Assembly: GCA_022897995.1 (NCBI GenBank)
Contig: GCA_022897995.1_4763.1
Reading direction: 5' to 3' (one strand)
Length of the DNA: 64,000 nucleotides
Origin: a phage
Shown here: piece after piece, positions 5,928 to 42,280 of the stretch
Layout of the letters: the number at the start of each line of letters is the position of its first letter
Numbering within the stretch: the stretch's first letter is position 1
Notes under the pieces: generated by a model
What the model saw: only the letters and a program-made list of their open reading frames with translations
Told to the model about the DNA's origin: nothing
Databases searched by the model: none
Made by a program: the position numbers and the translations under genes

Positions 5928-7727
5928 TCACCCAAGATCAATACGGCTACCATCAATTTTAACTGTACCCGATGCGATATCTTTAACGCTTGCGCCACAA
6001 TTACGGGACCAGTCACCATTAACCTGATCTGATTTAGTGCCATTGACGGTCATATTAAAATTACCCTCAACGGTTAAATCATAGTTACCTTTAATTGTCT
6101 CGGTAGTGTTACCCTCGATCATTAATTCAGCATTACCCTTGACGTTAGCCGTCAAATTAGCGTCAAGCTGTGCGATAACATCACCGACAACATGCATATT
6201 TGCAGTACCCTCAACGGTCTGATTAACATTACCACGAACAAATTCAGTAACGTTTCCATCAACGGTTTGCATTACATTACCCATATAATAAACTTGCGCG
6301 TCACCTTCAACAACAACTTGCAGATTTCCTTTAACGTTGACTTTGCGGCCTTGCTTAACGATCAAATAGTCATCACCTTCAATCTTTTCTACCCTCGTTC
6401 CGTCCGGTCTGGTTTCTTCAAATGTACCAGAAGGATGTTTGCGGTGATAACGTTCGTGAGAAGGAGTATCATCAATCTCGATAATATGACCGCTCTCTGA
6501 CTCGTACACATGGTTATAAGGATACCTTGCAGAATACGAACTCTTAGGCTCTTTAAACATGATTCGTGTGTCTTGTGGGGTAAATGGTGCTTCTGGGTCT
6601 TCTTCTGCTCTCTGCGTCTTATAGGCAGCAATACGGGCATTTCTCAAACGTGCTCGCGGATCATCAGAAATTGATTCCTCTTTCTTTGGAGCAATTACGC
6701 CATATGATTCTAAGTTACCAGTTAAAATAATTTTAGATACACGGCTTGAACGTCCTGGAGTTTGGTTAGCCCATACCGATTGACGTAATCCATCATAGGC
6801 TTGTTTCCATTCTTCCGCTAACATCGCAGCAAGACTATTCTTAAATTTACCCAATCCACCAACACCCATTTGAAACGCCATATTTTCTAATGCCATACGA
6901 CGAGAAGCATTACACTTATTATAGACAGGTGCAATTCGTGGATGTTTGCGCATATCACGACGAGTCTTTTCTATATCGTCAGCAAATACTTTACTAACTT
7001 CTTCGGCTGTAAGTCTTCCGTTTGTAACTTCACGCCCTACCAGCTTAGAAAGTTCATTATTGATAATACCCAGATCACTGGTTTTCTTATAAATGATCAA
7101 ATGCCCGATGCCTATTGTCGGATATCCTTCTGAATCAAGATACCATTTCTCGCGATATCCCTCATCGCCCCGCAGCATTTTTTCTATTGTGTATTCTGGG
7201 TTATCGTCAACCGGAATTTGGTCTAATGGCTCGTCGTCTGGATTTACTGCAAATCCAGTGTTTTCATCTCGAATATAGACACTATCAGGTTTTGTTGTTT
7301 GTCCGGTTTCTGGGTTAATACCGCCACGAGCAAGAATATTAACATCATTACCAATATAACGAGGATATGCACCAGAAGGGTCGCAAAAACCTTCTGTAGT
7401 GAGTGGTTTCTCTGTATATTGTCCGGCAATAGTACCCAGAATAACGCAGTTTAAATAACGTTCATCTAAAGCCAAACCAAATACCATTGAACCTTCAACA
7501 ATACCAGTAGGACTTTGACCTATACCGGAGATCGCCGCGCTTGTAATATCTTGTACTGGCGTAATCCATAATAGATCTTCGGTTGGAAGACCTTGAATGT
7601 CACCGTGTGCGGATAGCGAAGGATGTATACCATGAATCCTAACCTGAACACGCCCCAGCATTAACGGGTCTTCCCTGTTTTCTACAATTCCGGTAAACCA
7701 TTTAACGGAGTTATTAAACATTAGCAT
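5928..7727 (-). CDS. 5: baseplate hub and tail lysozyme gp5
   Basis: 599 aa; T4-lysozyme-like segment (GYPTIGIGHLI); C-terminal VxGxxxxx beta-helix repeats (NVKGNLQVVVEGDAQV...). Confidence 0.9.
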   Translation of the reverse strand: MLMFNNSVKWFTGIVENREDPLMLGRVQVRIHGIHPSLSAHGDIQGLPTEDLLWITPVQDITSAAISGIGQSPTGIVEGSMVFGLALDERYLNCVILGTIAGQYTEKPLTTEGFCDPSGAYPRYIGNDVNILARGGINPETGQTTKPDSVYIRDENTGFAVNPDDEPLDQIPVDDNPEYTIEKMLRGDEGYREKWYLDSEGYPTIGIGHLIIYKKTSDLGIINNELSKLVGREVTNGRLTAEEVSKVFADDIEKTRRDMRKHPRIAPVYNKCNASRRMALENMAFQMGVGGLGKFKNSLAAMLAEEWKQAYDGLRQSVWANQTPGRSSRVSKIILTGNLESYGVIAPKKEESISDDPRARLRNARIAAYKTQRAEEDPEAPFTPQDTRIMFKEPKSSYSARYPYNHVYESESGHIIEIDDTPSHERYHRKHPSGTFEETRPDGTRVEKIEGDDYLIVKQGRKVNVKGNLQVVVEGDAQVYYMGNVMQTVDGNVTEFVRGNVNQTVEGTANMHVVGDVIAQLDANLTANVKGNAELMIEGNTTETIKGNYDLTVEGNFNMTVNGTKSDQVNGDWSRNCGASVKDIASGTVKIDGSRIDLG

Positions 7728-16941: not shown

Positions 16942-17124
16942 ATGAAAAAGATTAATTGGTTAGCGAACATAGGCGCGGTATGCGCCTTTAACATCCTCGG
17001 ATGGATAATGTTACATTTTGATGAGCGAGTTTCAAAATGTGACGGTGTATTGATTCTCGGATCGGCTAGCATATTCATTATGCTGTATGCAATTGCTGTT
17101 GACTTAAGCCGCGAGGATTGTTAA
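16942..17124 (+). CDS. small membrane protein
   Basis: Hydrophobic 60-aa ORF. Confidence 0.4.
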   Translation: MKKINWLANIGAVCAFNILGWIMLHFDERVSKCDGVLILGSASIFIMLYAIAVDLSREDC

Positions 17125-17125
17125 T

Positions 17126-17323
17126 ATGACGCTCAAGAGTATGTTTTTCAACTTCATAGGTGCTTCCATTCTTTCAATGCTATATCTTGTGACTGTATGG
17201 ATGGGCGACTATGAATTAACTAACGATGAAAATCTGACCGTGTTTACTGTCTTGACGATGATCATTTACACTGTCTTTCTTGTCTTGGATTTTATTGTGT
17301 TTCTTTACAAAACGGTGACTTGA
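17126..17323 (+). CDS. small membrane protein
   Basis: Hydrophobic 65-aa ORF. Confidence 0.4.
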   Translation: MTLKSMFFNFIGASILSMLYLVTVWMGDYELTNDENLTVFTVLTMIIYTVFLVLDFIVFLYKTVT

Positions 17324-17520
17324 TGACGATTAGGAAAAATGATATTGGTTTTGTTGCGGGTATCGCTAGCGTCTTTACTGTTGTTATTTTGCTAATGCTT
17401 TTACCCGGTGTATTCTCTGACCAGATTGAATTGTATGTAGCTTTTATCTGTTGCATTTATACTTGGCTTGCAATGTTTGTGATTAGTCTAATTATGCAAT
17501 TCGTCGTTAACAAATTTTAG
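17323..17520 (+). CDS. small membrane protein
   Basis: Hydrophobic ORF; coupled start. Confidence 0.4.
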   Translation: MTIRKNDIGFVAGIASVFTVVILLMLLPGVFSDQIELYVAFICCIYTWLAMFVISLIMQFVVNKF

Positions 17521-17541
17521 ATTTAATGTGAGGATTATATT

Positions 17542-17862
17542 ATGAGCAAACTGTTTGAAACTCCGCGTGAAATTCTGATTGATAAGCTGAAAGAACGTGG
17601 TTTTAAAATTAAAGATGCAACCAAATACAGCCGAATTGATGAAATTAAGTTGCATTCTCTTGATGAACTAGTAGAATATGTTGCGGCAGTGGCTGATCCG
17701 CAGTTTGATGTGATTGTAGGTGACGTTGAATATCTCGATAATGTATATTCATTCTTCACTTATGGTAAAATTGTGTCTGTGAAAATTTCATTCTGTGAAA
17801 ATGTGGAGGTGCTTGCTAGTGAACCAGAAAAACCAACTGACAACGGTCCTACGGCAGCGTAA
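17542..17862 (+). CDS. hypothetical protein
   Basis: 106-aa ORF after GAGGATTATATT. Confidence 0.5.
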   Translation: MSKLFETPREILIDKLKERGFKIKDATKYSRIDEIKLHSLDELVEYVAAVADPQFDVIVGDVEYLDNVYSFFTYGKIVSVKISFCENVEVLASEPEKPTDNGPTAA

Positions 17863-18133
17863 CAAGGAAGACCGTCTGATTTATGCGCTGGCGGTTATCC
17901 TTGAAAAAGAATTACCGGATCTTGAGGTAGTTTTTACTGACAGACCAGTAGGCCAACGTTACGGAGGATATGATAGCCTAGTTTATCCATCCTATAGCCT
18001 TGAAATGTGGGTAGAAGATTTTAAAAACTTGGCTGATGCATCTAAACCGCTTTATTTGTGGGATGTTGAGTATAATTGCGATCCCACTTGGCCTGGTATT
18101 AATGTTTATGCGTCTATGACTTTAAAGGTGTGA
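17795..18133 (+). CDS. hypothetical protein (start uncertain)
   Basis: ORF overlaps the preceding gene by about 68 nt; true start probably internal. Confidence 0.3.
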   Translation: MKMWRCLLVNQKNQLTTVLRQRNKEDRLIYALAVILEKELPDLEVVFTDRPVGQRYGGYDSLVYPSYSLEMWVEDFKNLADASKPLYLWDVEYNCDPTWPGINVYASMTLKV

Positions 18134-18135
18134 TA

Positions 18136-18294
18136 ATGGTTGAACAAATGTTAACTTCACTGGTAATGGCTTTCTGTATGGTTGTTGTTATGATTGCTGT
18201 GATCCCTAAAGAGAGAATGAATCTGCTTGTCGCTGTCTGTGTGGGCGTTGTTTGTGGATGGTTTGGGATCGCGCTAGAACAAGCTCTGCGTTGA
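18136..18294 (+). CDS. small membrane protein (52 aa)
   Basis: MVEQMLTSLVMAFCMVVVMIAVIPKE...; below the track cutoff. Confidence 0.35.
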   Translation: MVEQMLTSLVMAFCMVVVMIAVIPKERMNLLVAVCVGVVCGWFGIALEQALR

Positions 18295-18356
18295 TTAACA
18301 AAGCGGGTAGGGGTAATTTACTACCCGCATTAAATTAGCTCACTGGAGGGCTTTCT

Positions 18357-18545
18357 GTGGCGTTTTATCTATGGTTGCTTATAGTATGCTTTGTAATGGG
18401 GTTATGCTTCTATACTGGCGTATTCTGTTTGATCGACTGGATAAACGGTGGATTCTCTAATATCATTTTGCTAGCCGGATCAATCGCCTCGTTTCTGTTG
18501 ATATGGCTTTTTTCTTATTTGTTTGGTGAATGGGGTTTATTATGA
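18357..18545 (+). CDS. small membrane protein
   Basis: Hydrophobic ORF, first of four tandem small TM proteins upstream of the endolysin. Confidence 0.4.
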   Translation: MAFYLWLLIVCFVMGLCFYTGVFCLIDWINGGFSNIILLAGSIASFLLIWLFSYLFGEWGLL

Positions 18546-18721
18546 ACAAATATATGTTTTGGGCGACCCTTGCCTATGTTGTGATTGCGGTAGTCTGGGG
18601 ATTCTGTGTTATTGTCGCTTCCCTGATCTGGTGGGAATCGCTTGGCGCGGGTTGTCTGATTAGCGGTGCATCCTCTCTTATCATGGGTGTGATTGTTGGT
18701 TTTCTTATTTGGGAGGATTGA
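18542..18721 (+). CDS. small membrane protein
   Basis: Hydrophobic ORF; coupled start. Confidence 0.4.
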   Translation: MNKYMFWATLAYVVIAVVWGFCVIVASLIWWESLGAGCLISGASSLIMGVIVGFLIWED

Positions 18722-18723
18722 CA

Positions 18724-18939
18724 ATGGTTTTCTTCGGTCTTATTATAATGGTGCTTAATGTCATTTGTGGTGTTGCTATGTTAGCTATGGCCTTTACTGT
18801 TCCTATGTCTGTTGACAGCGCCGCATCCGTAGGTGTGTTGGGAATTGTAAACCTGTTTACTGCCATAGCATGTTGGATCACCGGACGCGATGAGGTAATG
18901 TATTACTTTTATAAACGTAAACAGAGAAAAGGAAAATAA
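18724..18939 (+). CDS. small membrane protein
   Basis: Hydrophobic ORF. Confidence 0.4.
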   Translation: MVFFGLIIMVLNVICGVAMLAMAFTVPMSVDSAASVGVLGIVNLFTAIACWITGRDEVMYYFYKRKQRKGK

Positions 18940-18940
18940 T

Positions 18941-19132
18941 ATGAGATTTGCATTTGGTTTTACCGTGATGTTGATTATTGCTCTGAGTATGTGTACCGGA
19001 ATGCTTGTATTTGGTCTTGCAAACGGGTTTAGCATTTATAATAATCAGTGGGTTGATTGGGGAATGGTTGCTGTTAATGCGATCCTGATTGGTGCTAATA
19101 CAAGAACTCTATGCAGGATCACAGGAATCTAA
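18941..19132 (+). CDS. small membrane protein
   Basis: Hydrophobic ORF. Confidence 0.4.
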   Translation: MRFAFGFTVMLIIALSMCTGMLVFGLANGFSIYNNQWVDWGMVAVNAILIGANTRTLCRITGI

Positions 19133-19160
19133 ATATTATCACTCACAAAGGGGGTGAATA

Positions 19161-19550
19161 ATGTTTAAATTATCTCAAAGAAGCAAAGATCGGCTTGTTG
19201 GTGTACATCCAGACCTGGTAAAAGTCGTTCATCGTGCATTAGAACTGACTCCGGTCGATTTTGGTATTACGGAAGGTGTGCGTAGTCTCGCAACGCAAAA
19301 GAAATATGTTGCGGAAGGTAAATCTAAGACTATGAAATCTCGTCATCTTCATGGTTTCGCGGTTGACGTTGTAGCGTATCCGAAAGATAAGGATACATGG
19401 AACATGAAATATTACCGCATGATCGCTGATGCATTTAAACAAGCTGGTCGAGAATTGGGTGTTCCTGTTGAATGGGGCGGGGATTGGACCAGTTTCAAAG
19501 ATGGTCCTCATCTACAATTGCCTCACAGCAAATACCCAGATCCACAATAA
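19161..19550 (+). CDS. endolysin, L-alanyl-D-glutamate peptidase (M15 / T5-endolysin-like)
   Basis: Motifs SRHLHGFAVDV and EWGGDW...GPHLQL match the zinc peptidase M15 signature; sits where T4 has gene e. Confidence 0.75.
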   Translation: MFKLSQRSKDRLVGVHPDLVKVVHRALELTPVDFGITEGVRSLATQKKYVAEGKSKTMKSRHLHGFAVDVVAYPKDKDTWNMKYYRMIADAFKQAGRELGVPVEWGGDWTSFKDGPHLQLPHSKYPDPQ

Positions 19551-19611
19551 TTATTAACCATCAACGGGGAGACAATCTAAGGATCTCTCCCCGTTCACTG
19601 GAGACTTGACA

Positions 19612-20097
19612 ATGAATATTGATGTAAAATTAGAAAGTAAAGATTTGATTTATGCTGCGTGTGTTTCTGCCGTAGATGGCATCATAGAACGCCGTAAGCG
19701 ACGCAATTTTGCTGATGACCTAGATTCCATCGTCTCAATCAATTTAGGCCGTCAGACAGGGCATACAGACGCTACAATCAAGTTATATGACCATTATACG
19801 CGAAAAGGCTATAGTGTCTTTATCGTCTCAACGACGCGGGAACATGTCAAAACGATCCGAGATCGCGGTCGCGGTGAAAATGTAAATATTTCAAATGTAG
19901 ATTGCACGTCGATCCGAACTTTCCTGAATCCGATCACATGGCGAGGTCGTAGTCTTGACAGAACAATTTTTATCCTAGATACTACCATGCGCGGATTTAC
20001 TGACAGCGTATTGCAGTTTTTAGAGTTAAATCGACGTAGTGTTGGGGTGGGTAATGTAGAAGACCAACCTATTTTCATTGGCTTAGGTATCAACTAA
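19612..20097 (+). CDS. hypothetical protein
   Basis: 163-aa ORF; no recognisable motif. Confidence 0.45.
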   Translation: MNIDVKLESKDLIYAACVSAVDGIIERRKRRNFADDLDSIVSINLGRQTGHTDATIKLYDHYTRKGYSVFIVSTTREHVKTIRDRGRGENVNISNVDCTSIRTFLNPITWRGRSLDRTIFILDTTMRGFTDSVLQFLELNRRSVGVGNVEDQPIFIGLGIN

Positions 20098-20222
20098 TGA
20101 AAAATAAAGATAGCGTAGCTCGTCGATTTCGTGCTACAATTAAAAAGAATCGTAAAGTCCAACCTGATAAACTCTATGGTGTTTTGGTTGGAAAAGTTAA
20201 TGACGAACGTCCTGATCTATAA
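20097..20222 (+). CDS. small basic hypothetical protein (41 aa)
   Basis: MKNKDSVARRFRATIKKNRK...; coupled ATGA start. Confidence 0.25.
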   Translation: MKNKDSVARRFRATIKKNRKVQPDKLYGVLVGKVNDERPDL

Positions 20223-20232
20223 GAGGTGAATT

Positions 20233-20649
20233 ATGGAATTTAAAGCAATTCAAATCATGAAAGGTGAGCATAAAGGTACTATTATCGGTGGATATTTCGC
20301 CCCTATGATTCTGGTATCCGAACCTAAAGCACTGATCGGCGCTAAAGTAATTGTTAGTAAAACTTTCGCAGAAGACCATGTGATCACCGCAGAAGACGTC
20401 GATTCGCTGGCACTGCACACAACTAGCTTCCGTCCTGTTATTGTAGATAATGGTGCTCCTGTTGTCGAGGGAGGCCAGCATTTGAATGTTAACGTATTGT
20501 TACGAGAAATGTTGCTGGACGCGGTTGAACATCCTGAGAAGTACCCGCAGCTTACAATTCGCGTTTCTGGTTACGCAGTGCGCTTCAATAGTCTGACTCC
20601 AGACCAGCAGCGTGACGTTATCGCGCGTACCTTTACCGAATCTCTCTAA
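20233..20649 (+). CDS. grcA: autonomous glycyl radical cofactor (GrcA/YfiD-like)
   Basis: C-terminal [25 protein letters not shown] is the glycyl-radical signature; size (138 aa) matches GrcA. Confidence 0.8.
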
Positions 20650-20657
20650 TTTTTCAT

Positions 20658-20692
20658 CAAGCCAATCCGAAAAGGGTTGGCTTTTTCGTTTT
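20658..20692 (+). terminator. rho-independent terminator
   Basis: agccaatccgaaaagggttggct hairpin plus T-run. Confidence 0.55.
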
Positions 20693-20735
20693 ATGATGAT
20701 ATGATGCAATCTCTTAATCAACTGAGGGTTTAATT

Positions 20736-21434
20736 ATGCATACAATGGTTAAAATGGTCTTCGGATCTCACTTATACGGCCTTGATACTGAAAATTCCGA
20801 TAAAGATTATCGAGGTATCTTTGTTCCGACTGCGAAAGAAATTATTTTAGGATCGATGAAAGAACACTATGACCAAAGCACTAGCGGTCAAGGTATCAAG
20901 AACACCAAAGACGATATTGATGTTAATATGTTCAGTCTAAAAAGGTTTATCAATCTGGCATGTAAAGGTGATATTGGCGCTATTGACATGGTGCACGCGC
21001 CTAGTAACATGTTGATTGAATCCTCCAGAGAATGGGAATACATCCGAACACATCGCGATAAATTCTATCATGTTGGTATGTGGGGTTGTTCTGGCTATCT
21101 CAAAAAGCAGGTAGCCAAATCTGAAAAGTATTTCAGTAACTGGAAAGATCTTTCTCATGCTCTGCGTGTTGGTTATCAGCTACTTGAAATCTATCAGACA
21201 GGTGATCTACAATTCCCGCTCGCGCGACGTTCTTCTATTTTAGCGTGTAAGTTAGGAGAAAGAACCTTTGATAATGTGCGGGAAGAATTGAAAGATCTCT
21301 ACGAGCGTGTTAAACTCGCGCGTGAAGAGGCAAAGAAAAACGGTATGCCGGAAGAACCAGATGTTGACTTTTGGAAAGATTTATTAGAATATATTCATCT
21401 GACCGTTGTTCTGGAACACTATACCCGTGGTTAG
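20736..21434 (+). CDS. Pol-beta superfamily nucleotidyltransferase-like protein
   Basis: N-terminal FGSHLYGLDTENSDKDYRGIFV fits the hG[GS]x9-13 D-x-D NTase motif; 232 aa with helical C-terminus. Confidence 0.55.
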   Translation: MHTMVKMVFGSHLYGLDTENSDKDYRGIFVPTAKEIILGSMKEHYDQSTSGQGIKNTKDDIDVNMFSLKRFINLACKGDIGAIDMVHAPSNMLIESSREWEYIRTHRDKFYHVGMWGCSGYLKKQVAKSEKYFSNWKDLSHALRVGYQLLEIYQTGDLQFPLARRSSILACKLGERTFDNVREELKDLYERVKLAREEAKKNGMPEEPDVDFWKDLLEYIHLTVVLEHYTRG

Positions 21435-21455
21435 TTAATATAGGAGATTAAGAAA

Positions 21456-21650
21456 ATGCAAGTTTATACCAATAGCAATAAAGGCAATGATATCACACCG
21501 GGAAAGATGTATGATTTTACCCCGGCACGAGACGACGAACATCCACCGACTATCGGGTATATTGAAGATGATGCGGGGTTTCGTATTACGATCCTTCTTG
21601 ATGGTGGATGTTCTCATCTTCGCGGTGATCGTTGGGAGTTAGTACCATGA
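21456..21650 (+). CDS. small paralog family member A
   Basis: 64 aa; shares the C[SA]HL[RD]G/Y-x-W-x-[LI]V C-terminal motif with the next two ORFs. Confidence 0.5.
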   Translation: MQVYTNSNKGNDITPGKMYDFTPARDDEHPPTIGYIEDDAGFRITILLDGGCSHLRGDRWELVP

Positions 21651-21892
21651 TGTATGTGATGACACCTTATAGTAACCGCAAGTATATTACACCAAATGCA
21701 CTGTATGAATATACACCACATGAAAGATTTGCGAATAGTGGTTATATCCGTGATGATAAGGGACACCAGATTTTTATTTGTCTTAAAAATTGTGCACACT
21801 TAGACGGTCGAACATGGACACTGGTCGAAGAACCAAAACAACCTGAGAATAAAGGTCTTTGGAATGTGCTAAAAAAATTCTTGAAAAAGTAG
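21647..21892 (+). CDS. small paralog family member B
   Basis: Paralog of 21456 and 21950 (NCAHLDGRTWTLV). Confidence 0.5.
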   Translation: MMYVMTPYSNRKYITPNALYEYTPHERFANSGYIRDDKGHQIFICLKNCAHLDGRTWTLVEEPKQPENKGLWNVLKKFLKK

Positions 21893-21921
21893 TTGACAGC
21901 ATGAAACGGGGGTAGTAATAT
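21893..21921 (+). promoter_or_regulatory. early promoter with stem-loop (PeSL-type)
   Basis: TTGACA, inverted repeat gggggtagtaatataccccc, TAATAT; near-identical to the element at 13773. Confidence 0.6.
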
Positions 21922-21949
21922 ACCCCCATCGAAACAAAGGAGTATTAAA

Positions 21950-22288
21950 ATGAGTGTTAAAGAAGTATTTGTTTATACTGACTATGACAGGTGCGCCTAT
22001 CTCACTGCTGGAAAACTTTACCGTTGTGAGATTATTCATGGTACGCTAGGTCGAATTATGTGCGATCCGATTACAAAATTGTGGAAAAACAATCCTAGTG
22101 AGCGAGAAACTATTATTAACCTAGATTCAGACGGTTGTTCACATTTGGACTATAGAAAATGGCATATCGTGACACATGATGCTTATGGTATTCATCTTGC
22201 TACTAAAGAATTGACTATTGACAAGTTCAAGTTTAAAGAAATCCCGTTTGTATACTGGCTTCGCAATTTGTTTAAGAAAGGAGAATAA
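21950..22288 (+). CDS. small paralog family member C
   Basis: Paralog (DGCSHLDYRKWHIV). Confidence 0.5.
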   Translation: MSVKEVFVYTDYDRCAYLTAGKLYRCEIIHGTLGRIMCDPITKLWKNNPSERETIINLDSDGCSHLDYRKWHIVTHDAYGIHLATKELTIDKFKFKEIPFVYWLRNLFKKGE

Positions 22289-22289
22289 A

Positions 22290-22712
22290 ATGGAAACAAT
22301 TAATGTACACGTTCGCCGTAGCAAGCTGCGCAGATTCTTCGAAGCTGAAATGCGTAAGACTAACGCACAAATCAAAGAAAAGTGCTTGAATAATGGTTAC
22401 GGTGAGTATATTTTCATTCGCTTTAGTCCGCATATGATCGACCGTCTAACCGACCGCCATATCGATGAACATAAGACAATGGAACTATTCAATAAGGTAG
22501 AAACTCGTTTGCCGGAGATATTCGACTTCCTGAAAATGGAAGACCGACCTAATCGATTAGAAATTACTGACGGTAACATGTGGATCGGGATGACAGTAGA
22601 TCTAATCGAAGACGGTAAACCGTATCACGGTCTATGCTGCCGAATGATTATAGAGAATCCAAAACGACTGGCGGGTAAAATGTCGGCTGTTGTTTTGAAA
22701 GTGGACCAATAA
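22290..22712 (+). CDS. regB: RegB sequence-specific endoribonuclease
   Basis: METINVHVRRSKLRRFFEAEM ... RPNRLEITDGNMWIGMTV ... CRMIIENPKRLAGK matches T4 RegB as I recall it; located between e and tk as in T4. Confidence 0.75.
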   Translation: METINVHVRRSKLRRFFEAEMRKTNAQIKEKCLNNGYGEYIFIRFSPHMIDRLTDRHIDEHKTMELFNKVETRLPEIFDFLKMEDRPNRLEITDGNMWIGMTVDLIEDGKPYHGLCCRMIIENPKRLAGKMSAVVLKVDQ

Positions 22713-38514: not shown

Positions 38515-40377
38515 ATGGAAAAACTAATCAAAGACATTACAGAGATCGCAACGGGTAAAGAAAACGAAGTAAGCAAAGAGAACGCGAACAAAGACGCGCG
38601 AACATTCCCGACACGTCGAGATCTGATTGCTGGTGCTGTGTCTAAACAGATTGCTAAAACCGTGTTACCTGAGCACATCTATAAAGCGCATGTAGACGGT
38701 GACATTCATTATCATGATATGGATTATGCACCCGCTATGCCGTTTACTAACTGCTGTCTTGTTAATCTCAAAGACATGTTAGAGAATGGTTTTAAATTGG
38801 GTAGTGCACAAATCGAAAGTCCGAAATCAATCGGCGTTGCTTGTGCTGTAACCGCTCAAATTATCGCACAGGTGGCAAGTCATCAATATGGCGGGACCAC
38901 AATTGCAAACATCGATCAGGTGTTAGCACCGTATGTTGAGAAAACATATCATAAACACCTTGCCGATGCCGAAACCTACGGAATCAAAGCTGATACTCTC
39001 TATGCACAAGAGAAGACAGAAAAAGAAACGCTAGACGGATATCAGGCGTTGGAATATGAGATCAACACTTTGTTCTCTACCAATGGTCAAACGCCTTTTG
39101 TGACTTTAACATTTGGTATGGGTACTAGCTGGGAAGAAAAACTGATTCAGAAAGCGATCCTGAACGTTCGAACTAAAGGTTTAGGTAAAGATGGTATCAC
39201 TCCGGTGTTTCCTAAGCTGGTGATGTTCTTAGAAGAAGGATTAAACCTTAAACCGGAAGATCCGAACTACGACATTAAGCAACTTGCATTGGAATGTTCT
39301 AGTAAGCGTCTTTACCCTGATTATATCTCTGCGAAGAATAACCGTAGTATCACTGGATCTAGTGTTCCGGTTAGCCCGATGGGTTGTCGTAGCTTCCTGG
39401 GTGTGTGGCATAATGAGAAAGGCGAAGAAGTATTAGACGGACGTAATAACTTGGGTGTTGTGACTCTGAATCTTCCGCGTATTGCTCTTATTGCCGCGCG
39501 TCGTGCTGGTAAAGCGTCTGTAATGCGCAGAATTGAGCTATTCGAACAAGAGCTAGCTAATCGTATGCCTATTTGTTTTGATGCTCTCATGAGTCGCGTA
39601 GACGCTTTAAAAGGAGCTAAAGCCAATGTTGCTCCTGTACTGTATACCGAAGGTGCATTTTTCCGTATTCATCAAAACGATGAAATTTTGGAAGTGCTGA
39701 AAGATGGTCGCGCTAGTATCTCTCTTGGTTATATTGGTTTACATGAGGTATTGAGCGTCCTGTTTGGTGTTCATCCGTTTGATTCGGAAGATGCGCAGCG
39801 ATACGGTAAACATATTCTTAAGATCTTGCGTCATTATACTGAAAAATGGAAGGACGAAACCGGACTTGGGTTTAGTCTTTACGGTACGCCAGCCGAGAGC
39901 CTTTGCTATCGATTTAATCGACTGGACCGAGAGCAATTTGGTATTGTTAAGGGTGCTACCGATAAAGACTGGTACACCAACTCATTTCACCTTGACGTAG
40001 ACCGGAAGGTTACACCGTTTGAGAAAATCGACTTTGAGAAAGATTATCACTGGCTGGCGTCCGGTGGCATGATCTCTTATGTTGAGTTCCCGGACATGAA
40101 AAACAACCTGAAAGGTCTTGAAACTGTAGTAGACTATGCAATGGATAAATTGCACTACTTCGGTGTTAATACCCCTTCTGATGTGTGTCATGTATGCGGA
40201 TCTACTAAGGAAATGAGAGCGACCGAGTTTGGTTTTGTTTGTCCTGATTGCGGCAATGATAATCTGGAAAAAATGAATGTTATCCGTCGCGTTAGTGGAT
40301 ATCTTGGATCTGTTGATCTGCGTCCATTCAACCACGGGAAACATTCCGAGATGGTAAACCGCGTTAAGCACATGTAA
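38515..40377 (+). CDS. nrdD: anaerobic ribonucleoside-triphosphate reductase NrdD
   Basis: 620 aa; C-terminal glycyl radical motif RRVSGYLGS; Cys pairs CHVCG...CPDCG. Confidence 0.9.
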   Translation: MEKLIKDITEIATGKENEVSKENANKDARTFPTRRDLIAGAVSKQIAKTVLPEHIYKAHVDGDIHYHDMDYAPAMPFTNCCLVNLKDMLENGFKLGSAQIESPKSIGVACAVTAQIIAQVASHQYGGTTIANIDQVLAPYVEKTYHKHLADAETYGIKADTLYAQEKTEKETLDGYQALEYEINTLFSTNGQTPFVTLTFGMGTSWEEKLIQKAILNVRTKGLGKDGITPVFPKLVMFLEEGLNLKPEDPNYDIKQLALECSSKRLYPDYISAKNNRSITGSSVPVSPMGCRSFLGVWHNEKGEEVLDGRNNLGVVTLNLPRIALIAARRAGKASVMRRIELFEQELANRMPICFDALMSRVDALKGAKANVAPVLYTEGAFFRIHQNDEILEVLKDGRASISLGYIGLHEVLSVLFGVHPFDSEDAQRYGKHILKILRHYTEKWKDETGLGFSLYGTPAESLCYRFNRLDREQFGIVKGATDKDWYTNSFHLDVDRKVTPFEKIDFEKDYHWLASGGMISYVEFPDMKNNLKGLETVVDYAMDKLHYFGVNTPSDVCHVCGSTKEMRATEFGFVCPDCGNDNLEKMNVIRRVSGYLGSVDLRPFNHGKHSEMVNRVKHM

Positions 40378-41634: not shown

Positions 41635-41787
41635 ATGTGGACTTTACTGATTTGGGAAACTGAAAACGCACAAGTAGAAATCCGTGAATACGAATACCTA
41701 AGCCCAGCTTATCTATTGGCATCTCGCGGTGGTTACTATAAAGCGCAGATTGTAAACGAGTTTGGGGTAATTGAATATGAGTTCTGA
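41635..41787 (+). CDS. small hypothetical protein (50 aa)
   Basis: ATG after AGGAGAATCAAAT; overlaps the nrdG start. Confidence 0.35.
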   Translation: MWTLLIWETENAQVEIREYEYLSPAYLLASRGGYYKAQIVNEFGVIEYEF

Positions 41788-42280
41788 TACATACGGCAAA
41801 CTACGCTATGCCGATATTAAAGATTGTGATATGGTTAACGGTGAGGGAGTGAGAGTCTCCCTTTACGTCACCGGATGTTCACACGCATGTGATGGTTGCT
41901 TTAATTCCAGTCTACTCAATCCTAAGAACGGGGAAACATTCACCGATGATACAATGGGATTGATTCTGGATCTGCTTAGACCTGATTTTATTCAGGGGCT
42001 AACATTCTTAGGTGGCGATCCACTGTATAAACGCAATTTAAAGGGTGTACAACGGATCATCGATGAAGTAAAATCATGGATGCCAAATAAAGATATTTGG
42101 CTATGGTCTGGTTATACCCTTGACCAATTGAATGATGAGCAAAGAAAAATTGTAGAATCAGTTGACATGTTCATCGATGGGCGTTATATTAAAGATATGC
42201 CAACGAAGAAGCCGTGGCGGGGGTCTGACAATCAAGTACAATACAAGATTGTTAATAGTATTCCAGTGAAAATTATTTGA
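41777..42280 (+). CDS. nrdG: anaerobic ribonucleotide reductase activating protein NrdG (radical SAM)
   Basis: GCSHACDGCFN Cys cluster near the N-terminus; about 167 aa. Confidence 0.8.
   Translation: MSSDTYGKLRYADIKDCDMVNGEGVRVSLYVTGCSHACDGCFNSSLLNPKNGETFTDDTMGLILDLLRPDFIQGLTFLGGDPLYKRNLKGVQRIIDEVKSWMPNKDIWLWSGYTLDQLNDEQRKIVESVDMFIDGRYIKDMPTKKPWRGSDNQVQYKIVNSIPVKII

Follow-up and report, generated by a model that had tools for sequence, protein, structure and literature searches.

The window analyzed here is a stretch of 64,000 nucleotides of phage DNA, on the plus strand of which positions 20233..20649 hold an open reading frame that encodes 138 amino acids and runs from ATG to TAA, exactly where an earlier note on this DNA had placed it. 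The frame is given by the ORF list and the sequence, and its designation as a phage GrcA-like autonomous glycyl-radical protein follows from matches to Pfam, TIGR04365, PHROG 1209 and the structure 6OWR, together with its orthology to the gene vs.6. A Shine-Dalgarno sequence, GAGGTG (20223..20228, +), can be read 4 nt 5' of the ATG, and the record of Ec_Makalu_003 carries an annotated ribosome-binding site at the equivalent position. The neighboring ORF on the 5' side, which is 41 residues long, stops at 20222, and no sequence corresponding to the barrel of pyruvate formate-lyase (PFL) was found upstream of the 138-aa ORF. With a ribosome-binding site of its own and a stop codon closing the ORF before it, the gene encodes a small free-standing protein. 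Directly 3' of the stop codon, a terminator scan detected an intrinsic terminator-like hairpin with a 10-bp stem, including 5 G-C pairs, followed by a T-run (20659..20692, +). Both GEC-3S and Ec_Makalu_003 have an annotated terminator at the corresponding position, and the transcription unit of the GrcA-like gene ends there. The G+C content of the gene is 45.9%, rising to 50.0% in its last 186 nt, as against 40.1% for the whole window, which fits a host-derived domain with a tightly constrained amino-acid sequence.

The protein can be divided into two parts. The N-terminal part (residues 1–71; 20233..20445, +) was delimited by an alignment of the window protein with its counterparts from RB49 and T4 and with GrcA of E. 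coli (also known as YfiD), by the start of the TIGR04365 match at residue 37, and by the role described for the YfiD N-terminus (PMC8683613). The C-terminal glycyl-radical domain (residues 72–138; 20446..20646, +) corresponds to YfiD 61–127 and PflB 693–759, as judged from a gap-free alignment with PflB and the domain limits given in PMC8683613, and is predicted to consist of a beta strand, the Gly loop RVSGYAV and a C-terminal helix. By its position in the sequence and in the alignments, the predicted radical site is Gly113, encoded by the GGT codon at 20569..20571 (+) and equivalent to Gly734 of PflB and Gly102 of GrcA. The earlier note had presented the glycyl-radical motif as the very end of the protein; the motif is indeed present, but four more residues (TESL) come after it.

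Several other features of the surrounding region deserve mention in their own right. Just past the terminator lies a nrdC.11-type nucleotidyltransferase gene (20736..21434, +), whose product matches the Pfam family RlaP (RNA-repair-pathway DNA polymerase beta family) with E=4.7e-14, and a sigma-70-like promoter with an extended -10 element precedes it at 20677..20705. In T4, nrdC.11 is located elsewhere, adjoining mobD. Between nrdC.11 and regB are three small tandem ORFs of 64, 86 and 112 aa (21456..21650, 21632..21892 and 21950..22288, all +), paralogues with 33–43% identity and an invariant motif C-x-H-L-x4-W-x2-V, which are labeled 'hypothetical' in all sister genomes. On the other side, about 10 consecutive small ORFs of 54–76 aa (16942..19132, +) encode mostly very hydrophobic, membrane-protein-like products, and directly 3' of this run is an M15-peptidase-type endolysin (19161..19550; Pfam Peptidase_M15_4).

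The sequence places the window within Krischvirus, as an RB49/GEC-3S-like, T4-type (Straboviridae) coliphage: bases 19000–22500 are 96–97% identical at the nucleotide level to Krischvirus genomes, including RB49, Phi1, GEC-3S, JEP8, the Makalu phages and others, in 59 records, and all of these records that match the region have an intact ORF with ribosome-binding site and terminator. The gene order of RB49 (vs.8, a small ORF, vs.6, nrdC.11, three small ORFs, regB, vs.1, vs and tk.4) is matched by the window. The T4 order (vs.8, vs.7, vs.6, vs.5, vs.4, vs.3, regB, vs.1, vs and tk.4) is collinear with it, the difference being that nrdC.11 and the three small ORFs of the window and RB49 replace T4 vs.5–vs.3. 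The ORF orthologous to the window gene is annotated 'vs.6' in RB49, where the protein is 99% identical, while T4 vs.6 (NP_049730.1, 120 aa) is 59% identical at the amino-acid level (BLASTP E=6e-48). On this alignment and synteny evidence, we regard the window gene as the syntenic orthologue of RB49 vs.6 and T4 vs.6. The RefSeq name of T4 vs.6 is 'autonomous glycyl radical cofactor GrcA', and the proteins of Ec_Makalu_003 and vB_EcoM_Skers, which share 98.6–99.3% amino-acid identity with the window protein, have likewise been named 'autonomous glycyl radical cofactor'. In line with T4 nomenclature, we take the T4 protein called Y06I to be the product of vs.6, an equation that we infer and that agrees with the RefSeq name, with the size of 120 aa and with the presence of a single homologue per T4-like genome. 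Homologues were found by tblastn in 1581 phage records, among them T4-like phages of Escherichia, Shigella, Klebsiella, Enterobacter, Citrobacter, Yersinia and Aeromonas, T5-like Demerecviridae, and jumbo phages of Serratia and Vibrio.

The assignment of the 138-aa protein to the GrcA/YfiD family draws on several comparisons. It matches Pfam PF01228 (Gly_radical) with E=1.5e-16 and 61.3 bits against a cut-off of 22.2, and its best match in NCBIfam is TIGR04365 (GrcA; E=3.7e-39, 133.9 bits), covering profile positions 28–126 of 126. PHROG 1209 is matched over its full length (E=1.6e-50; residues 3–138 of the protein against profile positions 1–121 of 121), and the sequence of the E. coli GrcA NMR structure 6OWR is matched with E=5.3e-33. 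The C-terminus of PflB gives E=5e-27, with residues 77–138 aligning without gaps to PflB 698–759 and also to GrcA 66–127. Over these last 62 residues, the window protein is identical to E. coli GrcA at 56 positions (90%), to T4 vs.6 at 54 and to PflB at 50 (81%), and two C-terminal stretches, of 24–25 and 14 residues, show no differences among the proteins of the window, RB49, T4 and E. coli. As sequence matches, these similarities to the GrcA/PFL glycyl-radical domain go far beyond chance; the identification made in the earlier note is correct.

The N-terminal half is less well conserved. Only from residue 37 on (position 28 of the profile) is it matched by TIGR04365, it has insertions, and its overall identity is low, with eleven columns (Q7, I8, F22, A37, I40, V41, K43, F45, E47, D48 and R67) invariant among the window protein, RB49, T4 and E. 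coli GrcA. The total of 133.9 bits falls short of the TIGR04365 equivalog cut-off of 170 bits, and we considered whether this speaks against membership of the family. Calibration with known proteins gave 234 bits for E. coli GrcA, 151.1 for T4 vs.6 and 118.7 for the protein of the T5-like Salmonella phage LVR16A. Since T4 vs.6, taken as Y06I with its reported function, also scores below 170, the cut-off is tuned to bacterial proteins and uninformative for phage members, and we rejected the low score as evidence against a GrcA. Aside from a score above that cut-off, and with an N-terminal half that is GrcA-like only in part, the window protein displays the defining sequence features of a GrcA. 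We also considered whether the heptapeptide REMLLDA of the window protein, which matches PflB where E. coli GrcA has RETLEDA, betrays a chimera derived from PflB. Variants such as LRRETLLDAVEH are already present among bacterial GrcAs, and the idea was rejected in favor of ordinary family variation.

Much of what can be said about function comes from E. coli YfiD and T4 Y06I. Both are 'spare part' proteins of ~14 kDa on which the PFL-activating enzyme (PFL-AE) installs a glycyl radical, and both restore activity in complex with O2-cleaved PFL, as summarized in PMC8683613 with reference to Wagner, Knappe and colleagues (Wagner et al. 2001, pmid 11444864). No spare part other than these two has been validated (PMC8683613, Andorfer et al. 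2021). YfiD 61–127 duplicates the fold of PflB 693–759, with its beta strand, Gly loop and C-terminal helix, and residues 1–60 of YfiD, although disordered in solution, are required for measurable binding to cleaved PFL; when they are removed, radical installation is about four-fold lower (PMC8683613).

We therefore consider it very likely, by analogy with these two proteins, that the window protein is a phage GrcA, a spare part that rescues O2-cleaved host PFL after host PflA has installed a radical on Gly113. According to this model, oxygen would cleave active host PFL at Gly734, so that the C-terminal 26 residues and the radical site are lost. The phage protein would bind the cleaved enzyme, with its N-terminal half serving for recognition, and its C-terminal domain, a near-copy of PflB 693–759, would bring a new Gly loop into the PFL active site. 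Host PflA (PFL-AE) would then put a radical on Gly113, and the conversion of pyruvate to acetyl-CoA and formate would be regained. Made during infection, the protein could in this way keep up the supply of fermentative acetyl-CoA and ATP in the microaerobic gut. The target is available, given that grcA-type and PFL-type matches occur in all 5426 of the 5426 E. coli genomes searched. As for a possible rationale, T4 shuts off host gene expression, and a phage that does so presumably cannot count on induction of the host grcA. The homology, the domain structure, the orthology and synteny with T4 vs.6 and the purifying selection described below are properties of the window gene itself, from which we infer the role in PFL rescue and the benefit to the phage. 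Since the N-terminal half is only loosely YfiD-like and is longer than that of T4 vs.6 by three insertions (3, 9 and 5 residues), the way in which it binds cleaved PFL could be different.

The earlier note had mentioned host PFL repair as one of three options, the others being repair of the phage's own NrdD and a role as substrate or decoy for NrdG, and had set the gene alongside both NrdD and NrdG. Both of these genes do occur in the window and serve here as context only: the class III ribonucleotide reductase NrdD (620 aa; 38515..40377, +; Pfam NRDD E=2e-175), with the Gly loop IRRVSGYLGS, and the activase NrdG (169 aa; 41771..42280, +; Pfam Fer4_12 E=5e-43, and Radical_SAM). However, they are hardly neighbors, as NrdD lies ~18 kb and NrdG ~21 kb downstream of the GrcA-like gene, separated from it by dozens of genes and at least one terminator. 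In GEC-3S, NrdD and NrdG have their own annotated promoters and terminators, and the GrcA-like gene belongs to a transcription unit separate from theirs. The NrdD Gly loop has a peculiarity that may be noted independently, namely a Ser directly before the radical Gly (residues 592–601, 40288..40317); RRVSGYLGS is found also in GEC-3S, whereas the corresponding loop reads RRTCGYLG in T4 and RRVCGYLG in the T5-like phage LVR16A.

The alternative that survives best is that phage NrdG, instead of or besides host PflA, radicalizes the GrcA-like protein, which would make the latter either a second NrdG substrate, so that PFL could be rescued without the host activase, or a protein that buffers NrdG or acts as its decoy. 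The Krischvirus NrdD loop has the RVSGY core in common with PFL and GrcA, which the NrdD loops of T4 and LVR16A do not, and NrdG is the sole radical-SAM ORF of the window: when every ORF of 60 aa or more was scanned, it was the single one with CX3CX2C, and no second, PflA-like activase was found within the window. Against this, the activase reported for T4 Y06I in the work summarized by PMC8683613 is PFL-AE, the two genes lie 21 kb from each other and belong to different transcription units, and the residues around the Gly have been kept identical to those of host PflA substrates, not of NrdD. The five-residue match itself is weak (BLASTP E=1.7). Comparative data point the same way, in that a GrcA-like gene and NrdD are both encoded by LVR16A, but no NrdG was found in the 111.6 kb deposited for it, a record labeled partial (tblastn best E=2). 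Possession of the gene would accordingly be independent of phage NrdG. The two genes also differ in the host genera of the phages that carry them: the counts of phage records are 1581 for GrcA-like genes and 2262 for NrdG overall, and 286 and 126, respectively, for Salmonella, while Vibrio, with 293 records for NrdG, is outside the ten commonest names for GrcA-like genes. All in all, we find activation by NrdG, in either form, quite improbable. The more specific proposal that, with the NrdD loop changed from the usual R(T/V)CGYLG to RVSGYLG, Krischvirus NrdG may have broadened its specificity to activate both NrdD and the GrcA-like protein, giving the phage a self-contained PFL-repair kit that needs no host PflA, strikes us as very improbable; the likeness between the NrdD loop and the PFL/GrcA loop is a weak lead toward such cross-activation and not evidence for it. 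If true, it would make both radical installation and PFL repair by the phage independent of host PflA.

NrdD is likewise a glycyl-radical enzyme that oxygen cleaves at its Gly, and the GrcA-like protein might in principle be a spare part for the phage's own O2-cleaved NrdD. NrdD and a GrcA-like gene are present together in the window phage, T4 and LVR16A, and spare parts for glycyl-radical enzymes other than PFL have been speculated to be possible (PMC8683613). The pentapeptide RVSGY is the sole sequence shared by the window protein and phage NrdD, phmmer gave no match between the two at E<=1, and the paired-cysteine segment (CHVCG...CPDCG) that precedes the Gly loop in the NrdD C-terminus has no counterpart in the GrcA-like protein. 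The identities of 50/62 with PflB and 56/62 with GrcA are, on the other hand, what docking into the PFL barrel would need. Repair of NrdD is thus extremely unlikely. Among the three options of the earlier note, host PFL repair is the supported one, as it agrees with the activity that PMC8683613 relates for T4 Y06I, taken as the orthologue; NrdD repair and the NrdG substrate or decoy role are both without support.

The history of the gene also bears on its function. Over the last 186 nt, it is 72% identical to grcA of E. coli K-12, with a pN of 0.10 and a pS of 0.84, meaning that synonymous sites are saturated. This combination of identity and saturation suggests that the Krischvirus gene is an old phage-resident lineage, in which strong purifying selection appears to preserve identity with the host PFL-type Gly domain. 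Relative to RB49, dN/dS is ~0.05, a value that rests on just seven differences. Purifying selection on the Gly domain fits a protein that must be recognized by the host activase and dock into a host enzyme, in line with host PFL rescue. T4 vs.6 has a different history. The gene (6558–6920 of the T4 sequence, compared with 203–586 of the E. coli K-12 grcA sequence) is a mosaic, with ~98% identity to E. coli K-12 grcA over its last ~175 nt and about 50% over its first ~200 nt, and the similarity to grcA stops at the stop codon. This pattern points to recent recombination with the host grcA, whereas the Krischvirus copy in the window has no such grcA-like tract of high identity (72%). We also looked for a recent bacterial donor of the window gene and rejected one, as a scan of 185,579 species genomes (one per species) gave ordinary grcA at 50–72% identity, along with one 89% match over the last 61 residues only, and nothing closer than the phage homologues. 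That the phage carries the gene passively, as a fragment of host origin that has no function for it, as its accessory and host-derived character and its position amid many small genes of unknown function might suggest, is scarcely credible, because 56 of 62 residues have been kept although synonymous sites are saturated relative to host grcA, because dN/dS to RB49 is low, because ORF, ribosome-binding site and terminator are intact in all 59 matching Krischvirus records, and because 1581 records, from T4-like, T5-like, Aeromonas, Vibrio and jumbo phages, retain a homologue.

A phage-encoded GrcA is not in itself new. The biochemistry was carried out for T4 in 2001, as PMC8683613 recounts, and any novelty that the earlier note may have seen in it is forestalled by T4 RefSeq and by near-identical Krischvirus genomes, whose annotations already use the same name. 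Database labels for phage members are inconsistent, ranging from 'hypothetical' through 'pyruvate formate-lyase' and 'ribonucleotide reductase subunit' to 'acetyltransferase-like', and the NCBIfam GrcA cut-off misses phage members of the family. Given host PFL rescue as the probable role, an enteric lytic phage would here provide a clear-cut case of an auxiliary metabolic gene, one that presumably maintains a fermentative enzyme of the host under oxygen fluctuation.

Comparison with known systems places the window protein among the free-standing GrcA-like proteins, as an orthologue of T4 vs.6. The C-termini of PflB (698–759; PDB 1H16, 2PFL) and TdcE resemble it, that of PflB aligning free of gaps with identities that include RVSGYAV, but the window protein stands alone at 138 aa and does not have the ~700-residue catalytic barrel that bears Cys418/Cys419. 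With E. coli GrcA/YfiD (P68066; PDB 6OWR; TIGR04365), it shares the two-part build, with a presumed recognition half at the N-terminus and a C-terminal PFL-type domain. It differs in its N-terminal ~36 residues, which the TIGR04365 profile leaves unmatched, and in being encoded by a lytic phage and therefore outside host regulation. The T5-like protein LVR16A gp075 (122 aa; 39895–40263 in LVR16A) belongs to the same size class and is identical at 48/62 positions of the C-terminal domain, while its N-terminal half is unrelated in sequence to the T4 type, such that tblastn matches residues 51–138 only; for the GrcA-like genes of T5-like phages, the labels in use include 'ribonucleotide reductase subunit', '2-ketobutyrate formate-lyase', 'pyruvate formate-lyase' and 'acetyltransferase-like'. 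Compared to T4 vs.6, the window protein is 18 residues longer, owing its greater length to the N-terminal half with its three insertions. The likeness to T4 vs.6 extends from the locus, just downstream of vs.8 in the shared regB/vs/tk.4 neighborhood, through 59% identity overall and 54/62 in the C-terminal domain, to the phage-type N-terminal motifs KA.QI..G.HKGTI and A+.IVSKTF.ED, which are common to both, and to a Gly loop and C-terminal helix that are nearly identical, with D124/E as their sole difference.
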